Assembly (NCBI GenBank): GCA_046757725.1
Contig: JBHHYU010000006.1
Span: forward strand, 13,841 to 77,840
Direction: 5' to 3'
DNA length: 64,000 bases
Origin: Candidatus Binatia bacterium
Lineage (GTDB): Bacteria; Desulfobacterota; Binatia; UBA9968
Positions within the stretch are counted from its first letter, which is position 1, and the number at the start of each line of letters is the position of its first letter. This document shows, piece after piece, positions 25,589-40,562 of this stretch. The notes below the pieces were generated by a model. The model did no database searches. It was not told the DNA's origin and worked only from the letters and a program-made list of their open reading frames with translations. The position numbers were made by a program, and so were the translations under genes.

Positions 25589-26683
25589 ATGAAGCGATCG
25601 TGGGTTCAAAGAGTCTGGAAAAGGGAAGGCCTTTTTGCTTCCCTCCTTTGGATCCTCGTTCTGCCTTTGTCCTTTCTCTATGGGGCTGGAGTCCGAGTTC
25701 GTAATGGTTTTTATTCACTTAGATGGAAACAGTCGAAACACTTGCCGTGTATGGTGGTCAGTGTGGGAAATCTCACCGTGGGGGGTACGGGTAAGACGCC
25801 GACAACCTTATGGCTGGCACAGGCACTCAAAAAAAATGGGTTCAGAGTTGCAATCTTGAGCCGTGGATATAAGAGAACAGCAGGCGCCACCGTGATCCTG
25901 GACCCCGGCCTTAGTCGAGTGGTTTCTGGTGAGGGAGGGGCGGAGAACGCCATAGACGCGGGGGATGAACCCTTCATGATGGCGAAACTTTATTCGCACA
26001 AAGTGGGTGTGGGAAAGAAACGATACGAGGCAGGGAATCAAATACTCCAGAGTGAGCACGTGGACGTCTTTATTCTCGACGATGGTTTCCAGCACCGGCA
26101 GTTGAGTCGGGATATCGATCTTGTACTTTTAGGCCTGGAACATAAAGGATGGCTGATGCCTGCGGGTCCTTTTCGGGAGCCGAGAGGTGTCTTGCGTCGT
26201 GCGGACCTCTGTTTGGTCACCGGTGCCAGGGAAGAATGGGGAGCATTTTTAGCCGGTAGACAGGAAAAATCAGCCGTATTCTTCGGTTCCCTTCGACCAA
26301 AAGTCTTAGTAAGCTGGGAGGGTGAGCAGTGGCAAGAAGCTTCCTTGGGTCTATTGGTAGGGAAGAAGATCGTAGCGGTCTCTGGCATAGCCAGTGCCGC
26401 CCCTTTTTATAGAATGATTCACGACTGGGAGGGAGAGATCCTAGACACCGTTGAGTTTTCTGATCATCACACCTACTCCGCTGAGGATTGGCAAAGGATC
26501 AATCGTGCTGCCCGGCATGCCGACCTCATTATTACTACCGAAAAAGATATATTTAAATTGATGCGCTTTCCCTTCGCAAAGAAACAACTTTTGGCGTTAC
26601 GGGTAGAAATGGTTGTGGAAAATGGGTGCGCGCTGATTAAATGTGTTGCGGATGCGGTTCGAGCAAAGATGAGAGATGCCTAA
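25589..26683 (+). CDS. lpxK: tetraacyldisaccharide 4'-kinase
   Basis: P-loop [13 protein letters not shown]. Confidence 0.9.
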
Positions 26684-26692
26684 GTAGGAGCT

Positions 26693-27772
26693 ATGATTGC
26701 GGTGACCCGTGCAAGCCCAGCTGTCTTTGTCGATCGGGATGGTACGCTGATTCGCGACGTCGGTTATCTTAGCCGCCCGGGGCAGATCGAACTGTTGCCT
26801 CGGGTTCCCGAGGCCATCCGTTCAATGCAGCAACATGGACTCAAGGTAACGGTTATAACGAATCAATCAGGGGTCGCACGAGGCTTTTTTGGTGAAGAAC
26901 AGCTTCAACGGGTTCACGAGGCGTTGAAAGCACGCTTGGCGGAAAAGGGTGTTTGTCTGGATGGAATCTACTATTGTCCCCATCATCCATCCGAAGGAAG
27001 AGATCCTTACCGGGTTTCTTGTAACTGTCGGAAACCGAAGGATGGTCTTCCCAGACGGGCGGCAACCGATCTGAATGTGGATCTTGGTTGTTCCTATGTC
27101 GTCGGCGATCGGTTGTCCGACATGAAAATGGCTACTGGCATCGGAGCCAAAGGGATCCTGATCGAAGGTGAGAAAATCCTGGAGGAAAAGGAGAGCGGTT
27201 CGAAAAACCTGGTGGTAAAGGACCTTTGGGAGGCTGCACAGTGGATTATCAGTGACCTCGGCCAAGAAGAAAGAAGAAGCGCGGCGATGGAAAAAGCAAT
27301 GTTTGGAGCTGGGTGCTTCTGGGGGGTAGAAGAAGTCTTTCGTCAGTGTAAAGGCGTTATTGCTACTGCCGTGGGATATGCTGGCGGTTCCTTCGAAAAC
27401 CCAACCTACGCAGATGTGTGTACCGGAACCACGGGGCATGCCGAGGTAGTGGAGGTGGAATATGATCCGTATCAGGTGTCTTACGGGGAGCTTCTTACCT
27501 TGTTCTGGAAAAACCATGATCCAACGACATTGAACCGGCAAGGGCCGGACATAGGGTCACAGTACAGGTCCATCATTTTCTTTTATAATCCAGAGCAAAA
27601 AGCATTAGCCGAGGTCGCGAAAGAGACGCTTCAAAAGAGTGGCAGGTCCATACGGCCAATCGTCACAGAGATTATTCCAGCAGCGCGGTTCTATCGCGCG
27701 GAGGAGTATCATCAAAATTATCTTATCAAGTCGAGGTTGGGTTCTCTGTCTGGTTTTCTAAAAAAGGTGTGA
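26693..27772 (+). CDS. fusion ORF: an N-terminal HAD domain resembling D,D-heptose-1,7-bisphosphate phosphatase (GmhB), and a C-terminal peptide-methionine-(S)-S-oxide reductase (MsrA)
   Basis: N-terminal DRDGTL HAD motif plus Zn-site CPHHP...CNCRKP. C-terminal [11 protein letters not shown] MsrA active-site region. One continuous 359-aa frame with no internal stop. Confidence 0.8.
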
Positions 27773-27815: not shown

Positions 27816-28277
27816 ATGCCGGTTCAGTTCGTCGATGTTATTCATCACAAGAAGTTAAGGGTTGGCTATAGCAAGAAAGTGCTTGCGAAAACAGATGAGT
27901 TCCATGTTTGGATTCACGGGGACCGCCCGGGTGTGAAAGGGCCGATGCATAGACACACGGCGGATGAGACCTTTTACTGTATACAGGGGGAGTGTACCAT
28001 TGTACTCAGAAAAGGCTTGAAGACAAAATTAAAGCCTGGAAGGCTCGTGTTCATCCCGAAGGGAGAATACTATCGACTGCACAATAGCGGATCTGATTAC
28101 ATGATGCTTCTGGGATCTCGGTCTGAAGCCCACAGGCATCCCCGGTTTAGTACGAAAGGCAAAAAAGTAGGTGGAAACCGCACAGCGCTGAAAACATCAT
28201 CCGGTTTCATCCGGAGAAGAACCAGAAGGGCTAAGGACAGGCAGGCAGCCGCCAGGGGGCCCGTTAGGGGTTCCTGA
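27816..28277 (+). CDS. cupin-domain protein with a basic low-complexity tail
   Basis: HRHTADETFYCIQGE...FIPKGEYYRLHN, a two-motif cupin pattern. Confidence 0.6.
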   Translation: MPVQFVDVIHHKKLRVGYSKKVLAKTDEFHVWIHGDRPGVKGPMHRHTADETFYCIQGECTIVLRKGLKTKLKPGRLVFIPKGEYYRLHNSGSDYMMLLGSRSEAHRHPRFSTKGKKVGGNRTALKTSSGFIRRRTRRAKDRQAAARGPVRGS

Positions 28278-28732
28278 GAAACTACGGTTTGATTACCCAG
28301 AAGGTAGCGAGGTGCGAGTTCGGCTTCAGAAATATCGCAGATCCGGAGTCAGGGCAGGGCAATCTCGGCTCTCCGTTAACGAGAGCGGTTCCTCAGGAGA
28401 AAACCTTCCGGCCTGAGTCAATAAGTCTGTGCCTTGACGGCCACCCCCCCCCGTCCCCTTTAGCTGGGCTCTCCAATGGCCTGCGCCTGCCTCCAACCTC
28501 CACGTCCCTATGCCTCATGTTTCCTCCCTCCGAACCGGATGCAAGGACAAACTGGTTTTGCCGGCCTGCTGACCAGGCTCTTGTTGATAAATAAGCACTT
28601 ATGGGATACTCTCGCTTAAAAACGAGCCGTGGTTGGTAGTAGTTTTTGCTATACGGACTTCCGGTGGGCTTCAGAAAAACTCGCGCTGTGATATAGGCAG
28701 TCGGGTACTAGCGTCCGAAAGCATACCCAAAG

Positions 28733-28918
28733 TTGACGGAGGAATTAGTGATGGCGATTAGTAAGGATCTTTTGGATATTCTCGCGTGCCCCAAATGTAA
28801 AGGGGACATCCATTTAAACCCATCAGAGGATGGTCTCATTTGTGAGGCATGCCATTTAATGTACCCTATTAAAGACGACATCCCCGTCATGTTGATAGAT
28901 GAAGCGGTCCAATTGTAG
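28733..28918 (+). CDS. Trm112/UPF0434-family small zinc-ribbon protein
   Basis: DILACPKCKG...CEAC...YPIKDDIPVML. Confidence 0.7.
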   Translation: MTEELVMAISKDLLDILACPKCKGDIHLNPSEDGLICEACHLMYPIKDDIPVMLIDEAVQL

Positions 28919-30062
28919 TTTTTCCCTTCGGTTTTTGGCATCAAGGCCTAAGGTTCCGATCCGAGACCTAGGCCGTGGCGAGAAGATCCTTGTGGTTCAA
29001 ACGAGCTTTCTTGGCGATACCGTTTTGAGTACCCCTCTCTTTGCGGCAATCAGAGACCGTTTTCCGGAGTCGCACTTGACTGTTCTTTCGACGCCTCAGG
29101 GTAAGAGCCTATTGGTGGAGAATCCAAATATCGACGAAATTATAACTGACGATAAAAAAGGAGAGGGACGCGGCTTGTTCGGTCTATGGCGCAAGGCCGA
29201 AGATTTAAAGCACCGAGCGTTTACCATTGCCATCACTCCCCATAAATCTTTGCGTACCGCTCTGCTCTTGTGTCTTGCGCGAATTCCGTGTCGTATTGGC
29301 TTTCGCCAGAGTGCCGGCTGGTTCTTGTATCACTGCCGGGTGGATAGGGATTCTGTCCGGCATGATGTGGATAGAAACCTGTCTATTCTCAAGGCGTTTG
29401 GAATAAACCCGGATACGTGTGCGCATAAGCTGCAGGTTCCCGTCCATCCGCGCACCCGTGAAACCGTTGAGCAACTCTTCAACTCCCTCGGAATTACCCG
29501 CAACGGGATCACGGTTGGTTTAAATCCTGGGGCGGTCTGGGCAACTAAAAGATGGACTGCCGTGGGGTATTCTGAGTTAATGATCGAGCTGAAGCAAAGG
29601 TATGGTTACCAGATCGTGCTTTTTGGAGGTCCCGAAGACCTAGGAATCATAGCTGAGATTCAAAGGCTTGCGGGTCATGTCGGCATCAGTCTGGCGGGCA
29701 AAATCGATCTTTGTGATCTAGCCGCGGCAATCGAGCGTTGCGATCTTTTTATCACGAACGATAGTGGACCGATGCATGTGGCGGTGGCATGCGGGGTACC
29801 CGTACTGGCTGTATTCTGTGCTACTACTCCCTCGCTGGGTTTTTATCCTTATTCTTCTAAGGCAGTGGTTGTGGAGAAGGCCCTAGCCTGTCGTCCGTGT
29901 AGCTCTCACGGAGGGCGGCGTTGTCCGCTTGGCACGGAAGACTGTATGCGTTTGATCAAACCCAAAGATCTGCTGAACGGTGTGGAGCAACTGCTGCATG
30001 GAAAACCTCAGGTCGGTCTTTCAGGATCGGATGTTTGCTTCCCGCAGTTTATTACTTGTTAG
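28899..30062 (+). CDS. ADP-heptose:LPS heptosyltransferase (GT9)
   Basis: KILVVQTSFLGDTVLSTPLF N-terminal GT9 motif. C-terminal region typical of heptosyltransferases. Exact start uncertain (28899 ATG or a TTG near 28935). Confidence 0.85.
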   Translation: MKRSNCSFSLRFLASRPKVPIRDLGRGEKILVVQTSFLGDTVLSTPLFAAIRDRFPESHLTVLSTPQGKSLLVENPNIDEIITDDKKGEGRGLFGLWRKAEDLKHRAFTIAITPHKSLRTALLLCLARIPCRIGFRQSAGWFLYHCRVDRDSVRHDVDRNLSILKAFGINPDTCAHKLQVPVHPRTRETVEQLFNSLGITRNGITVGLNPGAVWATKRWTAVGYSELMIELKQRYGYQIVLFGGPEDLGIIAEIQRLAGHVGISLAGKIDLCDLAAAIERCDLFITNDSGPMHVAVACGVPVLAVFCATTPSLGFYPYSSKAVVVEKALACRPCSSHGGRRCPLGTEDCMRLIKPKDLLNGVEQLLHGKPQVGLSGSDVCFPQFITC

Positions 30063-30075
30063 TTGTCTTCCTTCT

Positions 30076-30849
30076 ATGTCCACTCTTGGTGTTGTTGTTT
30101 TTAGCCTGCAAGGGATGAAGCCGCTTGCGCAATGCCTGGAGAGTGTGCGATGGGCCGATTCCATTGTGGTGCTTCATGTCGGGGAGGGAGAACCCGCAAT
30201 CGAGCCCGGCTCGCTCTCTTATCGCGTTTTTCGGGGGCTTGATGCGGCACAGCCGGTGGAGAGGATTCAACAGGAGATTCGGACGGACTGGGTGTTGCAT
30301 CTATGGGGTGAAGAGCGGGTAGGGACTGAGCTTAAAGAAGAGCTCCAAAGACTTTGCCAGACGACATCGCCCAAGGCTTCTTCCGGCTATCGAATACCTA
30401 TACGCTCCCGTGTCTTGGGCCGTTGGGTTCAAGGGAGTCTTTGGGGAACGAGTCCCTCAGTTCGCCTCCTTCATGAGGTTAGGGATCTATCGCTCGGATG
30501 GTGGGATACGGAGTGCAGAAACTTTAAAGAGGTTCCGGGGCTGGTCCAAGCTTGGATTGGGGATTATAGTTTGGCTGAACTTGATCATGGTATGGACCAT
30601 GTGCAGAGTGCTTCCGACCTCTGGATGAGCCGACTGCAAGCTATAGGCGAGGCTCCGAGTCCAGGCAGAATCGCGAAAAGTTCCGTTCATGTGTTTATGC
30701 GGCTCATGTTTATGAACGGTCTCTTTGCCGGCGGACTTGCGGATTTGACTTTGTCCACACTGGCCGCCTACGCTACCTTTTTGAGCGGTGCAAAACTATG
30801 GGAGAAAAGAAATGTTAAGGAAAAAGAAGTAAGGTCTAGGGTTCCATAG
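30076..30849 (+). CDS. degenerate GT2-like protein, paralogous to the GT2 at 41080 but lacking the DxD/DSxSxD motif
   Basis: LGVVVFSLQGMKPLAQCLESVRWADSIVVLH aligns with ISAIIVCFNEEHNIRDCLESVKWCDEIVVVDSFSTD in the GT2 at 41080. The Asp residues are replaced here (VLHVGEGE). Start moved from the track ORF (29980) to the ATG at 30076 (MSTLGVVVF). Confidence 0.55.
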   Translation: MSTLGVVVFSLQGMKPLAQCLESVRWADSIVVLHVGEGEPAIEPGSLSYRVFRGLDAAQPVERIQQEIRTDWVLHLWGEERVGTELKEELQRLCQTTSPKASSGYRIPIRSRVLGRWVQGSLWGTSPSVRLLHEVRDLSLGWWDTECRNFKEVPGLVQAWIGDYSLAELDHGMDHVQSASDLWMSRLQAIGEAPSPGRIAKSSVHVFMRLMFMNGLFAGGLADLTLSTLAAYATFLSGAKLWEKRNVKEKEVRSRVP

Positions 30850-30850
30850 A

Positions 30851-31621
30851 ATGTTTGAGGCAAAGGTGTGGGGGGATGCGCCCGCAGGTTTCAGAAGGCT
30901 CCCTATGGGCCGTAATCAGGTGATAATGATTCGCGAAGGACTAGAGAGTCTTATTCACAAAAATTGCGTGCTGCAGGGGGACCTAAAAAAAGAAGAAAGC
31001 CCCTTTTACGGGAGAGACAAGCTCTACCGCTTGCGCCTGGAAAACGGGGAAACTGCTGTGATTCGCCATTATCGCCATGGTGGTCTCATACGCTTTCTCT
31101 CGGGGGATGTATTTTTTTCGTGGCCCCCGCGTCCATTTAAGGAATTGGCTATAACCGAAGAGGTGCGTCGGAGAGGGATACCAACGCTTGAGATTTTGGC
31201 CGCCTGGATAGAAAAACTATGGGGGCCTTTTTACCGTGGGTGGTTAGTGACCCGTGAACTCAGAGGTGCAGACGACCTTTGGGCAGCTAGGCAAAGCTGC
31301 GGCTCTGGAGGCGATGATGGGGGTGCCGTGCTTAGGGCTGCGGCTCGAAGCCTTCGACGGATGCACCGGCAGGGGATATATCACAAGGATCTCAACCTGA
31401 AAAATATTCTCATTCGGCGCGAAGCAGAGGAGATCAGGAGTTATATCATTGATTTCGATAAGGCGCGACTTTTCCCGGCTCCGGTCCCCTCGGAAAAATC
31501 CCGGAAAAACCTCAAACGCCTTTATCGATCGGTCTGTAAGCTAGATTCGAAAAGGTACTATTTTTCGGAAGAGGATTGGAGCCGATTCATGAGTTTTTAC
31601 GAGGAGGCCGGGGAAGGGTGA
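30851..31621 (+). CDS. LPS kinase, Kdo/WaaP family (paralog 1)
   Basis: HKDLNLKNILI catalytic loop and IDFD motif. Confidence 0.8.
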   Translation: MFEAKVWGDAPAGFRRLPMGRNQVIMIREGLESLIHKNCVLQGDLKKEESPFYGRDKLYRLRLENGETAVIRHYRHGGLIRFLSGDVFFSWPPRPFKELAITEEVRRRGIPTLEILAAWIEKLWGPFYRGWLVTRELRGADDLWAARQSCGSGGDDGGAVLRAAARSLRRMHRQGIYHKDLNLKNILIRREAEEIRSYIIDFDKARLFPAPVPSEKSRKNLKRLYRSVCKLDSKRYYFSEEDWSRFMSFYEEAGEG

Positions 31622-32658
31622 CGCTCAATCCAACGCGTGTGCTCATTGTCCTTCACGGCTCCATCGGCGACGTAACCCGGGCCCTTCCCCTCGCCAATCT
31701 GATTCGAAGGGGTTATCCGAAAGCCAGGCTTACTTGGGCCGTCGAGTCGGCTGCCTATCCTCTAATCGAGAACCATCGATCTGTAGACGAGGTGATTCTG
31801 TTTAAGCGCGGACAGTGGTGGAAGCATTTTGTTCCCTTTCTGCAGCGAATTCGTTCAAAGCGTTTTGATCTCGTGCTTGACCTCCAGCGTCATCTCAAAA
31901 GCGGACTCATTAGCTGGGTGTCCGGAGCCCGTTATCGGCTGGGCTTTCATAGACATGACACAAAAGAGTTTAACTGGGTATTTAATAATCGGTATATTGA
32001 CGCTGCTGGGAATGGAATACCAAAGTTAACCCATTACTTGAAGTTCGCTGAGTTTCTCGGCATTGAGCCTTATCCCATTGAGTGGGGGTTCCGCTTAACC
32101 CCTGAAGAGGATGCTAGTGTCCAGCGAATCGTGGGGCGGATAGAACGGGGCTTTGCCGTATTTTTTGTTGGCAGCCGGTGGGAGAGCAAGCGCTGGTTTC
32201 CTGTGCAGGCGGCGAGATGCGCGGCGGAAATCCAAAAACGGTACGGATTAGCAGTTATCCTTTTGGGAGGAAAAGAAGATGGCGCTTTTGGAAAGGAGGT
32301 AGAGAATTCACCGTTGCTTCGGGTCTCCAATCAAGTGGGGCAGACCACCCTGCGCGAAGCCGTCGGAATACTCTCTAGGGCTGAAGTCGTTGTCGGACCG
32401 GATACGGGTCTTATGCATATATCCGCAGCGGTCGGAACGCCGGTAGTTTCCCTTTGGGGAGCGACGAACCCACTGCGAACCGGTCCGTATGGCTACCAAG
32501 ATCTGGTTGTCCGCGGGAAGGCCTCCTGTTCCCCCTGCTACCTTCGAAGATGTCCGATTGGCCGCCTGTGTATGCAGTCGATCGACATTGAGGAGGTTAT
32601 CCGTAAGGTTGACACGGTACTCTCTCAAAAGCGTCAGGTGAATGGGAATCGGATCTGA
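31618..32658 (+). CDS. LPS heptosyltransferase (GT9), second copy
   Basis: RVLIVLHGSIGDVTRALPL GT9 N-terminal motif. GTG start at 31618 overlaps the upstream TGA stop (GTGA). Confidence 0.85.
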   Translation: MTLNPTRVLIVLHGSIGDVTRALPLANLIRRGYPKARLTWAVESAAYPLIENHRSVDEVILFKRGQWWKHFVPFLQRIRSKRFDLVLDLQRHLKSGLISWVSGARYRLGFHRHDTKEFNWVFNNRYIDAAGNGIPKLTHYLKFAEFLGIEPYPIEWGFRLTPEEDASVQRIVGRIERGFAVFFVGSRWESKRWFPVQAARCAAEIQKRYGLAVILLGGKEDGAFGKEVENSPLLRVSNQVGQTTLREAVGILSRAEVVVGPDTGLMHISAAVGTPVVSLWGATNPLRTGPYGYQDLVVRGKASCSPCYLRRCPIGRLCMQSIDIEEVIRKVDTVLSQKRQVNGNRI

Positions 32659-33514
32659 ATACCGCTTCCACCGCGATGGAAGATGGAACCTACTGGTCTT
32701 TACTCAGAAATGGAGTCGGGGGTTGTGGGCGGAGGTGTTGGATTACCTGAAAGATCCAGCCGTTTCTGAACATCCGCAAATCAATCGTTTCCGTTACCCT
32801 CGAGGAGAGAATGGCGAAGAATTTTTTCTGAAGATCTATGATCGCTCCCGTTCTTTTGGGGCCTTTAAGGATACGTTTCGTGATTCCAAGGCGTTTCGGG
32901 CTTTAAGACAGGGGATATCCTTATCGGAACATGGGTTTCATGTACCTCTTATCATCGCAGCAGGAGAGGAAAGAAGTTTTAGGTTTTTAAAAAGGGCATT
33001 TCTTGTAAGTTCAGCTATAAAGGGGGTCTCTCTTCCTCAGTTTCTGGAGGAATATGCTGCCATTCCTGTTAATGTCGGGAACGTGAGAAAGAAAACGGAG
33101 TATATAAAAAAACTCGCACTGGAGACCCGTCGACTTCACCAACAAGGGTTTATTCATGGCGATCTAGTTCCGTCCAATATCGTCGCTCGAGTTGAAAAAG
33201 AAGAAGTCACCTTTTTCTTTATAGATAACGATCGAACCCGCCACTATCCCGGTTGGTTCCCCAATCTTCTTTGGAAAAGGAACCTGGTTCAGCTCAACCG
33301 CTTTGCATTGCCCGGCATCTCGCTTCAAGACCGCATGCGTTTTCTACATTTTTACGCGGGGGAGAAAACCTGGGGAAAGCAGAATCGGGGACTCATCCGG
33401 TGGCTGGAGAAAAAGACGCGACAGAGACGTGCAGAGTGCGAGCAAATTGCGAGCCAAGATAGCTTTAGGGAGCTTATGCGCTGGAAAGGTCGATTATCGC
33501 GTTATATTAAATAG
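32642..33514 (+). CDS. LPS kinase, Kdo/WaaP family (paralog 2)
   Basis: HGDLVPSNIV catalytic loop and FIDNDRTR. Confidence 0.8.
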   Translation: MGIGSEYRFHRDGRWNLLVFTQKWSRGLWAEVLDYLKDPAVSEHPQINRFRYPRGENGEEFFLKIYDRSRSFGAFKDTFRDSKAFRALRQGISLSEHGFHVPLIIAAGEERSFRFLKRAFLVSSAIKGVSLPQFLEEYAAIPVNVGNVRKKTEYIKKLALETRRLHQQGFIHGDLVPSNIVARVEKEEVTFFFIDNDRTRHYPGWFPNLLWKRNLVQLNRFALPGISLQDRMRFLHFYAGEKTWGKQNRGLIRWLEKKTRQRRAECEQIASQDSFRELMRWKGRLSRYIK

Positions 33515-36267: not shown

Positions 36268-37410
36268 ATGAAAGTAGCTCTGGCACATAAGCGATTAGAC
36301 CGGAGGGGAGGGACTGAGGCCATCTTCTTCCGAACGGCGGAAGGACTGAGGGACCGAGGGCATGAAGTGCATCTCTTCTGTGGAGAGTTTCATATAGCTC
36401 CTCCCACGGGTACTTTTTCTCATAGGGTTCCCTATTGGCCTATGGGGCGCACGGCGCGTCTGATGAGTTTTGCCTTTTTGGCTCCGAAGGTCATCAGTCA
36501 ATTCCACTGTGATCTGGTTGTGAGCTTCGGTCGGATGGTTTGCCAGGATGTGCTTCGTAGTGGCGGCGGTTCTCATCAGGTCTTTCTCCAAAAGATGGCT
36601 CAAGGATGCGGAGCGTGGAAGAAGCTTTGGTACAGGCTCAGCCCTTACCATGCGTGTGTGTTGGCTATTGAACGACGCCAATTTCGAGATGGCGGGTACA
36701 AGAAGATCTTGGCTATTTCTAAGGAAGTCAAAAGCGAAATTGTTAGTTCCTGCGGGGTCCCGCCGGATAAAGTCGTCGTGATCTATAATGGCGTGGATCT
36801 AGAACGATTTCATCCCCACAACCGGGAAAAATGGTTTGAGGAAATTCGTGCGCGTTGGGGAATTCCCTTGGAGAAACCAGTTGTGCTTTTTGTTGGAAAT
36901 GGGTTTCGGCGTAAAGGAGTGGACTTGTTACTGAAGACTTGGAGTATGGGACGCTTGCGCCAGATGGTCCTTCTCCTCGTGGGGGGAGATAGAAATATGC
37001 CCCACTATCTCCGTCAGGTCCGCTCACTCGATTTGGCAAAGGCAGTCATCTTTGCGGGAAAGGACCCAGAGGTCGAAAAATATTATGCGGCAGCGGACCT
37101 TTTCGTAATGCCCTCCTTCCAGGAAGCCTTCGGAAACGTATCTCTAGAAGCCCTGGCGTCGGGGCTACCTATTATTATCCCTTCTGGATCCGGGGCCTCT
37201 GAAATACTCGAGGGTGAACTAACGGAGGGTATCCTCCAGGATCACTCAAGCCCAGCTGAGCTGGAAACCCGTATCCTGGCGCTGCTTGATGCAAAACGCT
37301 TGCCTGTTCTATCGCGAGCGGCGCGGTCTCTAGCGGAAAGGTATTCATGGGATAAGTATTTTACAGAGTTCGAAAGGCAGATTTTGGAACACCCAGGAAA
37401 TGGAAGATGA
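36268..37410 (+). CDS. GT4-family glycosyltransferase
   Basis: C-terminal EAFGNVSLEALASGLP (EX7E-type) motif. Confidence 0.8.
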   Translation: MKVALAHKRLDRRGGTEAIFFRTAEGLRDRGHEVHLFCGEFHIAPPTGTFSHRVPYWPMGRTARLMSFAFLAPKVISQFHCDLVVSFGRMVCQDVLRSGGGSHQVFLQKMAQGCGAWKKLWYRLSPYHACVLAIERRQFRDGGYKKILAISKEVKSEIVSSCGVPPDKVVVIYNGVDLERFHPHNREKWFEEIRARWGIPLEKPVVLFVGNGFRRKGVDLLLKTWSMGRLRQMVLLLVGGDRNMPHYLRQVRSLDLAKAVIFAGKDPEVEKYYAAADLFVMPSFQEAFGNVSLEALASGLPIIIPSGSGASEILEGELTEGILQDHSSPAELETRILALLDAKRLPVLSRAARSLAERYSWDKYFTEFERQILEHPGNGR

Positions 37411-38246
37411 TCATGATAGCTGCGCCCGAGAGTAGCGAGGCTTTTCAGTCAGTCCAATCAAATAATGGCGTGACAGGCTGGGTACAGAAGGGTTTGCCGG
37501 AAGGCCTTTTCAGTGAGTTCATACGAGATCCCGGCCGTTTTCTCGATGTTCCATCCCCGCAAGTCTTAAAGAGTGAACGCAAAGTCCGAGTTATCAGGCA
37601 GACTCTAATAGATCACGAAGGAATGCCCCGGGAAGTAGTTATTAAGCAATTCCACTATTCCTCCCTCCGGCGCCGCGTGGGATCGTTTTTGACGCCGTCT
37701 TCGGCTGCCAGATGTGTCAGAGGTGCGCTGCTGTTAAAGCAATATGGGTTTGGTACGGCTAATCCGCTAGCCGTTTTTGAGTATCGAACCTGGAGAAATT
37801 GGGGCATCAGCTACTATATTACTGACGAGATCAAGGAGAGCTTTACTTTGCCCGCCTTTTGGCGTGATGTCTTGCCGACGCTGTCGAGGAAGCAAGCGCT
37901 GAGGAAAAGACGGGAGGTACTGGGAGAGGTTGCGCGGCTTTGCTACCGGCTTCATTCACTAGGGATTTATCACGGGGATTTTAAGGGGAGCAACATCTTG
38001 ATCCGACCGGGGGATGATGGAGAGTGGCAGTGTTTTCTAGTTGACGTTGACCGCATCCGAAAAAGCCGACGACTGCGCTGGTCGAAAAGGGTTAAAAACC
38101 TCGTTCAGTTGTACCGCACCCTCGGCAGACGAATGAGCATTAGAGACAAAATCTTTTTCCTCAAACGGTACTCTGAATTTTCCTGTCTATTGAGAAAAGA
38201 TCGTAAGAACCTAGCGCGTAAGGTTTTGGCTCTTAGCACGGAATAG
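37407..38246 (+). CDS. LPS kinase, Kdo/WaaP family (paralog 3)
   Basis: HGDFKGSNILI catalytic loop and VDVDRIR. Confidence 0.8.
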   Translation: MIMIAAPESSEAFQSVQSNNGVTGWVQKGLPEGLFSEFIRDPGRFLDVPSPQVLKSERKVRVIRQTLIDHEGMPREVVIKQFHYSSLRRRVGSFLTPSSAARCVRGALLLKQYGFGTANPLAVFEYRTWRNWGISYYITDEIKESFTLPAFWRDVLPTLSRKQALRKRREVLGEVARLCYRLHSLGIYHGDFKGSNILIRPGDDGEWQCFLVDVDRIRKSRRLRWSKRVKNLVQLYRTLGRRMSIRDKIFFLKRYSEFSCLLRKDRKNLARKVLALSTE

Positions 38247-39431: not shown

Positions 39432-40562
39432 CTAGGTGTTCCCGACATGAGACTTGAGACCATCGTAAAGCTCCAAGGGGCTAAAATGGCGTGGCACGTC
39501 GACTTTAAAACAAGCGGCTTCTGAGAAACTTTTTTCATAAAAACTTTTATTCTTATCAAATAACTGAGTCGTGTCGAGATTACTGATCTCCAGGGCGCAG
39601 AGGTTCAGCTTTTCCAGAAATTTGCGGTATTCGTCTAAAATGATGTGTGCGGAACGTCGTGCGACATCCTCAACCGCCATGGTTTCCACCTTGAGATTGT
39701 GAGTATCGGTGCGTCTGAGGTAAAAGACCTGCCGGATCTTGCTTTTTGTGCCTATTCGCTCAGCCCCGAATAAACGTGCCGGGGATATTCTACGACGTAC
39801 CTTGTGAGGTCCATGCATCCACGATCGTAGCTTCCACTGGGAGATGTCATCCAATGAGCGGCCCCGGAGGACTCTATTCAAAAGCTTGGGACTTCTAATT
39901 GTATTATAGCCGTAGACCTGCATGTGCATGGGATACGCGTAGGCCTGCGCTTCTTCATCCGTAAGCAATATGTCGTCACTCAGATACAACCAATGACCCT
40001 CCTCCATGAAACAGAAGCCGGCGCTTGTTTTACCCGATCCGCCACACCCGGTGAAAAGAATGGCTCCACGGGAAGTGTCCGTTATAGCGCTAGCGTGACA
40101 GAAACCTTGCCCTAGTCTAAGCATGGAGAGGTGAAAGATAGGATGGATGAAGTCATAGAGAACGTTTTTAGCCAATCGCTCGGTTCGAGAAAGGAAGCTC
40201 CAGTTACGCCGTTTGTCGATCCAATGAGCTAATGCCTGGGGCCCATTGTTCGCCACCGCCCATGAGTGGCAGCTGATGACGACCCGAAGTGGGTACTCTG
40301 CGGCGATATCACCGCTCACTGTAAAAGTATAACCTGACCTTTTTTCTACTCCGCTAAATGTTTTACCCTGGGAATACAAGGAATCCCTTAAGTAAATCCT
40401 TCCGCTTTCCTGACTAGGGACGACATCCCGCACCTCAATAATCAGGTGTGGGGATTCATTTGTCGTTGGCAGTGAGTCGTATTCCTCTCGTAGGAGCGTC
40501 GCGGCGCGGTGCGAGCCTTGAATGGAGAAAATAAACCGTCCTAGCCTTTTGGCCTTTTGCAT
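39432..40562 (-). CDS. HPr-kinase C-terminal-like P-loop protein (HprK-related kinase family), function unknown
   Basis: AILFTGCGGSGKTSAGFCFMEEGHWLYLSDD matches the HprK C-domain Walker A plus the downstream G-H-x-L-[IV]-x-DD pattern. The ~170-aa N-terminal region is unassigned. Confidence 0.6.
   Translation of the reverse strand: MQKAKRLGRFIFSIQGSHRAATLLREEYDSLPTTNESPHLIIEVRDVVPSQESGRIYLRDSLYSQGKTFSGVEKRSGYTFTVSGDIAAEYPLRVVISCHSWAVANNGPQALAHWIDKRRNWSFLSRTERLAKNVLYDFIHPIFHLSMLRLGQGFCHASAITDTSRGAILFTGCGGSGKTSAGFCFMEEGHWLYLSDDILLTDEEAQAYAYPMHMQVYGYNTIRSPKLLNRVLRGRSLDDISQWKLRSWMHGPHKVRRRISPARLFGAERIGTKSKIRQVFYLRRTDTHNLKVETMAVEDVARRSAHIILDEYRKFLEKLNLCALEISNLDTTQLFDKNKSFYEKSFSEAACFKVDVPRHFSPLELYDGLKSHVGNT

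Follow-up and report, generated by a model that had tools for sequence, protein, structure and literature searches.

Does a phosphatase of lipopolysaccharide (LPS) core synthesis that is covalently joined to a methionine sulfoxide reductase represent an evolved bifunctional enzyme, two genes read through, or an accident of genome rearrangement? The question is raised by a single open reading frame (ORF) in a 64,000-nt stretch of DNA from Candidatus Binatia bacterium, hereafter the window. An initial annotation, made from the sequence, described this ORF as a GmhB-like phosphatase fused to MsrA, and considered it either a genuine bifunctional protein or in-frame readthrough of two adjacent genes, with MsrA reinitiating at an internal Met. 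Each half belongs to a well-known family; the combination appears to be new, and to lack the recurrence typical of a functional family. The features on which the analysis rests are the following.

25589..26683, + strand: lpxK, tetraacyldisaccharide-1-P 4'-kinase (PF02606, 283 bits), syntenic in the related loci L003, L004, L005 and L082
26686..26690, + strand: AGGAG Shine-Dalgarno sequence for the fused ORF, read from the sequence
26693..27772 (stop codon included), + strand: gmhB::msrA fusion ORF, identical in L001 and one base off in L002
26714..27253, + strand: GmhB-type HAD-IIIA phosphatase domain, residues 8-187 (NF006506, TIGR01656, 3L8E alignment)
27254..27286, + strand: linker, residues 188-198 (11 residues), equivalent to the C-terminal tail of gmhB with a few codons added
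27287..27730, + strand: MsrA catalytic core, residues 199-346 (TIGR00401, 1FF3 alignment)
27731..27772, + strand: frameshifted MsrA tail, with an extra T at 27731 (homologue ends, alignment of E. coli Cys198)
27816..28277, + strand: Cupin_2 gene (PF07883, 48 bits), absent from the loci of relatives
28278..28732, no strand: non-coding spacer of 455 nt that closes the insertion on its right side, with a run of nine C (28444-28452), no Rfam match and no tRNA
28733..28918, + strand: trm112-like gene (PF03966, 52 bits), 70-78% identical to the gene that follows gmhB in L081, L082 and L003

One reading frame and two enzyme domains

Direct reading of the DNA confirmed that no stop codon separates the two domains, as first annotated: the ORF starts with ATG and runs for 359 codons with zero internal stops. 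Its ATG lies ten bases downstream of the lpxK stop codon (26681-26683), and the duplex energy with the anti-Shine-Dalgarno sequence at this start, over the upstream stretch scored, is -5.1 kcal/mol. An identical ORF is carried by a 29.9 kb Logan contig of run SRR29324609, and the same uninterrupted frame, with the one-residue variant E192Q, by a 7.2 kb Logan contig of run SRR29324611. The latter differs from the window at only one of 7,230 shared bases, a G>C change at 27266, which is the first base of codon 192 and falls in the linker. The stop codon or 1-nt indel between the domains that the initial annotation had envisaged for related strains is absent from this one related sample. Both Logan read sets probably belong to one study and one population, so that they speak for the existence of the ORF and not for its conservation over evolution. 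Furthermore, the NCBI contig of the metagenome-assembled genome (MAG; 85,590 nt, "Candidatus Binatia bacterium") carries the same MsrA and the adjoining cupin, homopolymer runs are absent from both the junction and T27731, and the ORF shows no shift in GC content along its length, junction included. Because two independent read sets give the same ORF, the single fused frame is considered genuine and an assembly artefact unlikely.

Residues 8-187 were placed among HAD-IIIA phosphatases of the GmhB/histidinol-phosphatase branch in the Pfam/NCBIfam scan (NF006506, 164 bits; TIGR00213, 143; TIGR01656, 127.5; TIGR01662, 113.7), which bears out the GmhB-like HAD domain first proposed from its DRDGT and CPHHP...CNCRKP motifs. 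The cut-offs of the broader models are passed (84 bits for TIGR01656 and 44.6 for TIGR01662), and those of the curated equivalog or subfamily models for GmhB are narrowly missed (NF006506, 164-166.5 against 178 bits; TIGR00213, 143-145 against 149.6). The best structural match of this half is E. coli GmhB (3L8E, E = 2e-39). HAD motifs I-IV are present (D14, D16, T18, T56, K114, D139 and D143) and align with E. coli GmhB D11, D13, T53, K111 and D136, and the zinc ligands C95, H97, C110 and C112 align with C92, H94, C107 and C109, positions that are nearly invariant among 16 relatives. Only three of 69 conserved columns are off-consensus, inside the spread of ordinary homologues, and the GmhB homologues among the matches listed are proteins of about 200 aa with 57-65% identity, the best reaching 65%. 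The resemblance to E. coli GmhB (3L8E/2GMW) thus extends to an equally placed set of DxDGT, TNQSG, K114, GDxxxD and the Cys-His-Cys-Cys zinc insert, and to the surroundings, an operon for the LPS core that also includes GT9 heptosyltransferases and a PfkB kinase; unlike E. coli GmhB, the window protein bears a C-terminal MsrA domain and scores just below the equivalog and subfamily cut-offs of NCBIfam. From family, motifs and operon context we infer that this half acts as a Zn-HAD phosphatase in the making of ADP-heptose and the LPS core.

The C-terminal half was likewise recognised correctly at the outset as MsrA with its active-site signature. Residues 200-347 match PF01625 with 214 bits (model positions 1-147 of 153) and TIGR00401 with 207-210 bits (cut-off 108). 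In a gapless alignment with 1FF3, C208 of the GCFWG motif corresponds to E. coli MsrA Cys51, and Y239, E251 and Y291 to Tyr82, Glu94 and Tyr134. Outside the tail the core is off-consensus at two of 75 conserved columns, which is inside the ordinary family spread, and it is 65-72% identical to stand-alone bacterial MsrAs among the matches listed. The window MsrA shares its catalytic Cys and the Tyr/Glu/Tyr residues that bind the sulfoxide with two-cysteine MsrAs such as the E. coli (1FF3), poplar (2J89) and N. meningitidis (3BQE) enzymes; unlike these, it lacks a separate N-terminal region, and the C-terminal KRGxxxC is replaced by an out-of-frame tail. MsrA tolerates N-terminal partners, as in MsrBA fusions and in E. 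coli MsrA itself, where 41 residues precede the aligned core, and it is therefore plausible, by this analogy, that the two halves fold independently. Within NCBIfam, residues 193-347 score best against the MsrA part of an MsrB/A fusion model, NF004042.

The junction and its place in the operon

The ORF directly follows lpxK and opens the heptose/LPS-core block, as the initial annotation had stated; domains of the neighbouring genes and synteny in relatives both agree with this. Downstream lie two GT9 heptosyltransferases, Kdo/WaaP-family kinases and a PfkB kinase. We compared the locus with the six loci that encode the closest GmhB proteins (L003, L004, L005, L081, L082 and L083). That comparison, proposed earlier as a check on whether the genes are fused or separate in orthologous loci, showed that in all six relatives gmhB is a stand-alone gene of about 200 codons beside lpxK, with no msrA next to it. 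Relatives with upstream sequence conserve the order lpxB-msbA-waaA-lpxK-gmhB. In the two nearest relatives, L081 and L082, whose GmhB proteins are 65% and 61% identical to that of the window, gmhB is followed after a gap of 14-80 nt by a trm112-like gene, a GT9 gene, a conserved ORF of unknown function, a Kdo-family kinase, a second GT9 and a second kinase. From position 28733 onwards, gene content and order in the window match this arrangement, with 48-78% identity (tblastn). The true start of its trm112-like gene is likely the ATG at 28752, behind a GGAGG sequence. The same slot in L003 holds another insert, a glutathione S-transferase (GST) gene on the opposite strand, and L004, L005 and L083 have different genes after gmhB.

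Between gmhB and trm112 the window thus has an extra segment of about 1.45 kb, made up of the msrA core, the cupin gene and the 455-nt spacer. Since relatives have a stand-alone gmhB and no msrA, this segment is best read as an insertion that continues the gmhB frame on its left side. By synteny, the fusion lies on the left border of an insertion specific to this lineage, and gmhB and msrA had no long history side by side. Around the insertion, a search for marks of mobile elements (direct or inverted repeats, tRNA genes, Rfam families) gave nothing above chance; the window contains no second copy of the spacer and no remnants of an L003-type GST gene. The idea that msrA and cupin travelled together as a cassette was rejected, as the relatives of the cupin itself are not beside msrA and the cupin is missing from the relatives' loci.

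The junction itself is short. GmhB relatives end 5-14 residues past the conserved AAQWI(V/I) helix, and Met199 of the window protein lies 12 residues past it. The linker therefore amounts to the gmhB tail with a few codons added, and a former intergenic region carrying signals of its own would not fit into the junction. The sole SNP between the two samples, 27266 G/C, sits in this linker.

The reinitiation first suggested for MsrA would be expected to use Met199, encoded by the ATG at 27287. The ribosome-binding site that had been proposed as a check before the MEKAMFGAG Met is absent: no Shine-Dalgarno sequence precedes this ATG, and its best anti-Shine-Dalgarno pairing is -1.8 kcal/mol, weaker than that of 70% of the 176 internal in-frame ATGs in the window. 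By comparison, likely gene starts in the window have a median of -5.6 kcal/mol and are mostly of the GGAG type, and the gmhB and cupin starts both have AGGAG. Furthermore, the scan for promoters and terminators found no promoter-like site in the 3' end of gmhB and nothing beyond the shuffled expectation. Met199 is also conserved inside MsrA homologues with long N-terminal signal or lipoprotein peptides, and consequently it need not be a start codon, present or former. As Met199 lacks a Shine-Dalgarno sequence, the 359-aa fusion is the expected product, and minor internal initiation at Met199 may occur besides. Readthrough of two adjacent genes with reinitiation of MsrA, the other possibility raised at first, is disfavoured both by this result and by the relatives, where gmhB is followed by trm112 and msrA is not adjacent. 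The NCBI annotation holds only a 161-aa MsrA, MFQ5682096.1, which begins MEKAMFGAG at Met199; no entry for the GmhB half was found in the protein searches.

The frameshifted end of msrA

The 3' end of msrA carries a further change that the initial annotation did not contain and that is new here. Nearly all close MsrA homologues terminate with YHQxYLxKRGxxxCxx(x) followed directly by the stop codon. In the window the corresponding RGWVLCLVF and stop, recycling Cys included, are read in the +1 frame (27732-27761), and the frame actually read past 27731 has no Cys in its tail, where two-cysteine MsrAs have their recycling Cys. When T27731 was removed in silico, the alignment with 1FF3 reached the end of the protein and the Cys fell on E. 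coli Cys198. The combination RG...C with a nearby stop occurs five times in the 127,996 six-frame codons of the window (4e-5 per codon), one of them exactly here, and a chance origin of the +1-frame motif is for this reason very unlikely. These comparisons show the msrA 3' end to be shifted by one extra base, T27731, with loss of the Cys198 equivalent. As both cores are normal at conserved columns, with no visible decay, the tail lesion appears discrete and recent; indeed, the ancestral reading still being visible in another frame suggests that the change is very recent.

The consequence for catalysis can be predicted from the family. In two-cysteine MsrAs the recycling Cys resolves the sulfenic acid of the catalytic Cys, and thioredoxin then reduces the resulting disulfide; MsrAs without a recycling Cys need external thiols and have rates 10- to 100-fold lower (PMC6316033, PMC6210582, PMC6211008). 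With this Cys removed by T27731, the MsrA half would be unable to form the usual Cys-Cys disulfide for thioredoxin, and is predicted to be impaired in recycling.

Rarity and origin of the fusion

Among 5.8 billion protein clusters, the only full-length matches found by word-seeded HMMER were the protein itself and its E192Q variant, and each of the others among the best 120 matches listed covers one half only. In 1.84 billion 50%-identity representatives, searched exhaustively, HMMER found no other protein with HAD and MsrA domains among the best 150 matches (at least 171 bits). Five of these 150 match in two stretches: two (P0002, P0123) consist of tandem MsrA domains, P0126 is a single MsrA that contains an internal repeat, P0220 joins GmhB to another N-terminal partner, and P0191, judged by length alone, has with 196 aa little room for both domains. 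Apart from the fusion and its variant, no match in the protein searches exceeded 72% identity to the MsrA half or 65% to the GmhB half. Furthermore, none of 75 MsrA loci from GTDB species genomes, recovered with peptide patterns biased towards the MsrA half, has a HAD domain near msrA, and for the GmhB-MsrA combination we found no report in the literature, only incidental co-mentions. The two protein collections were together built from about 15 billion proteins, and within their reach, from which a very divergent fusion below about 171 bits would escape, the architecture appears to be a singleton. Recurrence in several independent lineages, as in fusion families of the MsrAB or HisB type, was found neither in the protein searches nor in the GTDB loci.

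Conserved fusions of Msr domains include MsrAB/MsrBA, Trx-MsrA-MsrB (PilB), MSRA-Grx, and the archaeal AANH-MSRB and ThyX-MSRB (PMC6211008). The window protein resembles them in that an Msr domain tolerates a covalent partner through a short linker; they are kept across many species and mostly join redox partners, whereas here the partner is an unrelated sugar phosphatase and the fusion is known from a single population. On the phosphatase side, a HAD-IIIA domain as one half of a two-enzyme polypeptide recalls HisB (histidinol-phosphatase/IGPD) and the proteins P0218 and P0220, which look like GT9 heptosyltransferase-GmhB and acyltransferase-GmhB fusions, respectively. P0218 and P0220 carry their partner at the N-terminus, and by sequence and length it apparently belongs to the LPS pathway, whereas the partner in the window is C-terminal and belongs to an unrelated process.

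Three features together make a young accident the best reading, for which we estimate a probability of about 0.6: an architecture without a second instance in the searches, its location on the border of an insertion, and a frameshift still legible in another frame. On this reading two independent enzymes are joined in a private and probably neutral fusion, and recycling of the MsrA half is impaired. We infer the following order of events. The ancestor would have had the operon order lpxK-gmhB-trm112-GT9. A segment of about 1.45 kb (the msrA core lacking its N-terminal extension, the cupin gene and the 455-nt spacer) would have landed between gmhB and trm112, its left edge joining the last gmhB codons in frame to residue 1 of the MsrA core. 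Ribosomes initiating at the AGGAG/ATG of gmhB would then make one cytoplasmic polypeptide of 359 aa. Its N-terminal domain would take the 7-phosphate off D-glycero-D-manno-heptose 1,7-bisphosphate on the way to ADP-heptose and the LPS core, and its C-terminal MsrA would attack Met-S-sulfoxide with Cys208, performing the first reductive step; joined by the 11-residue linker, the domains would each fold and work on their own, and their reactions would not be chemically coupled. Insertion of T27731 would have shifted the last msrA codons and removed the equivalent of E. coli Cys198, leaving the MsrA half with, at best, slow turnover by means of an external thiol. We consider such a fusion most probably neutral, or else slightly harmful, and not an evolved bifunctional enzyme. 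Of the initial proposal of a genuine bifunctional protein, what stands is that the DNA encodes one; uniqueness, the insertion edge and the lost recycling Cys turn its interpretation towards a young accident. Two observations weigh on the other side. The closest GmhB is only 65% identical, too distant to fix the order and age of the events or to measure selection (dN/dS), and the MsrA core is undecayed beyond its tail and could be useful still, the tail change being tolerated or adaptive.

Other explanations of the ORF were weighed against this reading. A stop codon lost, or a chimeric join made, in sequencing or assembly would account for a fusion confined to one population and for the purine-rich, low-complexity stretch around the linker; it is very improbable, given that the MAG contig and the two Logan contigs from different runs agree, that a real SNP distinguishes the latter two, and that neither a homopolymer nor a break in GC content marks the junction or, for homopolymers, T27731. 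It is also unlikely that MsrA is mostly made separately from Met199, with the GmhB part present only in the read-through form or at a low level. The NCBI protein starts exactly there, as do many stand-alone MsrAs of 150-165 aa (at query residue 199), and a purine-rich stretch precedes the ATG; but ribosomes on gmhB meet no stop and must continue, and the poor pairing at 27287, the missing promoter-like site within gmhB and the conservation of Met199 inside homologues with long signal peptides all argue against a separate start. Equally doubtful is that msrA is truncated, frameshifted and dead, the protein being GmhB with a useless tail of 170 residues. The missing N-terminal region, the recycling Cys lost by frameshift, the patchwork nature of an insertion not found elsewhere as a cassette, and the placement of the sole SNP in the linker would all fit a remnant. 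The 148-residue core is, by contrast, free of stops and frameshifts, scores well above the TIGR00401 cut-off with no more conserved-column deviations than normal homologues, and retains Cys208, which suffices for the first chemical step.

Selection for the fusion is quite unlikely too. It would tie Met-sulfoxide repair, or a redox switch based on MsrA, to LPS-core heptose synthesis through a one-Cys mechanism. Catalytic and conserved positions are intact in both cores, the ORF is retained in two samples, and the GmhB of related lineages readily fuses with other enzymes, as P0218 and P0220 suggest; besides the archaeal fusions named above, Msr enzymes are known that rely on an external thiol to resolve their active-site Cys (PMC6211008). 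Against selection stand the lack of any second occurrence among the roughly 15 billion proteins within search reach, the absence of msrA from the relatives' locus, and a tail changed by a raw frameshift that looks very recent. We also know of no biochemical link between the heptose-phosphatase and MsrA reactions, and have counted this against selection. More unlikely still is a joint adaptation in which fusion and Cys loss would together have given a cytoplasmic one-cysteine MsrA tethered to the heptose phosphatase and co-expressed with it 1:1, so that envelope synthesis would be coupled to the oxidation state of methionine, through repair of pathway enzymes or as a redox switch of GmhB.

The interest of the young accidental fusion is evolutionary and practical (a young fusion, a frameshifted tail and a partial annotation), not mechanistic. 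It offers an example of the birth of a fusion, in which an insertion into a conserved operon abolished a gene boundary and a fresh frameshift can still be read in the other frame, and it calls for caution in "Rosetta-stone" inference of functional links from fusions. If functional, it would be a domain pairing not found elsewhere in our searches, linking LPS-core synthesis and oxidative protein repair. Annotation of only the 161-aa MsrA hides the fusion and could make the organism appear to lack GmhB. Finally, G and C are both seen at 27266, where a T would create a TAA stop codon, and fused and unfused alleles might conceivably coexist in the population through polymorphism at this site.

Codon 192 and the region around the fusion

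When the two samples containing this locus (Logan contigs L001, from run SRR29324609, and L002, from run SRR29324611) were compared over 7,230 nt, we observed a sole difference, a G to C change at 27266, the first base of codon 192 in the linker of the gmhB::msrA fusion, which converts GAA to CAA. A hypothetical T at the same position would create TAA, and gmhB would then stop 5 residues past its QWII motif, with a tail that falls inside the tail-length range of its relatives. This polymorphism hints at a relaxed constraint on the linker, or possibly at codon 192 having once been a stop codon.

Both contigs end exactly at window position 28414, within the spacer that follows the cupin gene. 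A run of nine C residues (28444-28452) lies about 30 nt further on, and the surrounding non-coding stretch is GC-rich (0.59). Since both contigs stop just short of this run in GC-rich non-coding DNA, the homopolymer probably interrupted either the short-read coverage or the assembly there.

The start of lpxK is uncertain, the candidates being 25589 and 25763, because the ATG at 25589 has no Shine-Dalgarno sequence (+0.4 kcal/mol). The predicted LpxK has 306 aa by gene call on L001, versus 364 aa on L002 and by longest ORF.

The related operon L003, one of the loci with a stand-alone gmhB, carries a different insert at the gmhB|trm112 junction:

L003 2701-3982: GST gene on the opposite strand and a 106-aa ORF

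Accessory (redox-type) genes seem to have inserted at this junction more than once.

Partners and location of MsrA and GmhB homologues

Among MsrA loci from other species genomes, a Marinimicrobia genome (L045 5246-6085) has a putative glutaredoxin-like ORF that ends a few codons before msrA and in the same frame, and in a Verrucomicrobiia genome (L043 7521-8555) the MsrA-containing ORF extends upstream into a putative MsrB-like region. These putative glutaredoxin and MsrB neighbours are usual redox partners of MsrA, unlike the GmhB found in the window. Two GmhB relatives with 47-49% identity, P0218 (552 aa) and P0220 (506 aa), are N-terminally fused to another enzyme; by sequence, this partner resembles a GT9 heptosyltransferase in P0218 and a lipid-A-type acyltransferase in P0220.

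Many of the closest MsrA homologues (e.g. P0013, P0015, P0017, P0018, P0023 and P0039) carry N-terminal signal or lipoprotein-like peptides, such as ...LASCGQ and ...VSCSH, and are therefore probably exported. In contrast, the fused copy in the window has no such peptide and would be cytoplasmic.

Kinase genes and ORFs without a Pfam match in the window

The following genes were considered:

29980-30849, plus strand: 289-aa ORF between the GT9 and Kdo-family kinase genes
39432-40562, minus strand: 375-aa ORF inside an otherwise plus-strand GT4/GT2 glycosyltransferase block
30851-31621, 32642-33514 and 37407-38246: three separate Kdo/WaaP-family kinase genes of the LPS-core block

A Pfam search gave no match for either the 289-aa or the 375-aa ORF. 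The former occupies an equivalent place, flanked by the GT9 and Kdo-family kinase genes, in three loci of relatives (L003, L081 and L082), with 48-55% identity, and appears to be a conserved but uncharacterised component of the LPS-core operon. The presence of the three Kdo/WaaP-family kinase genes beside two GT9 heptosyltransferases suggests a heavily phosphorylated inner core.
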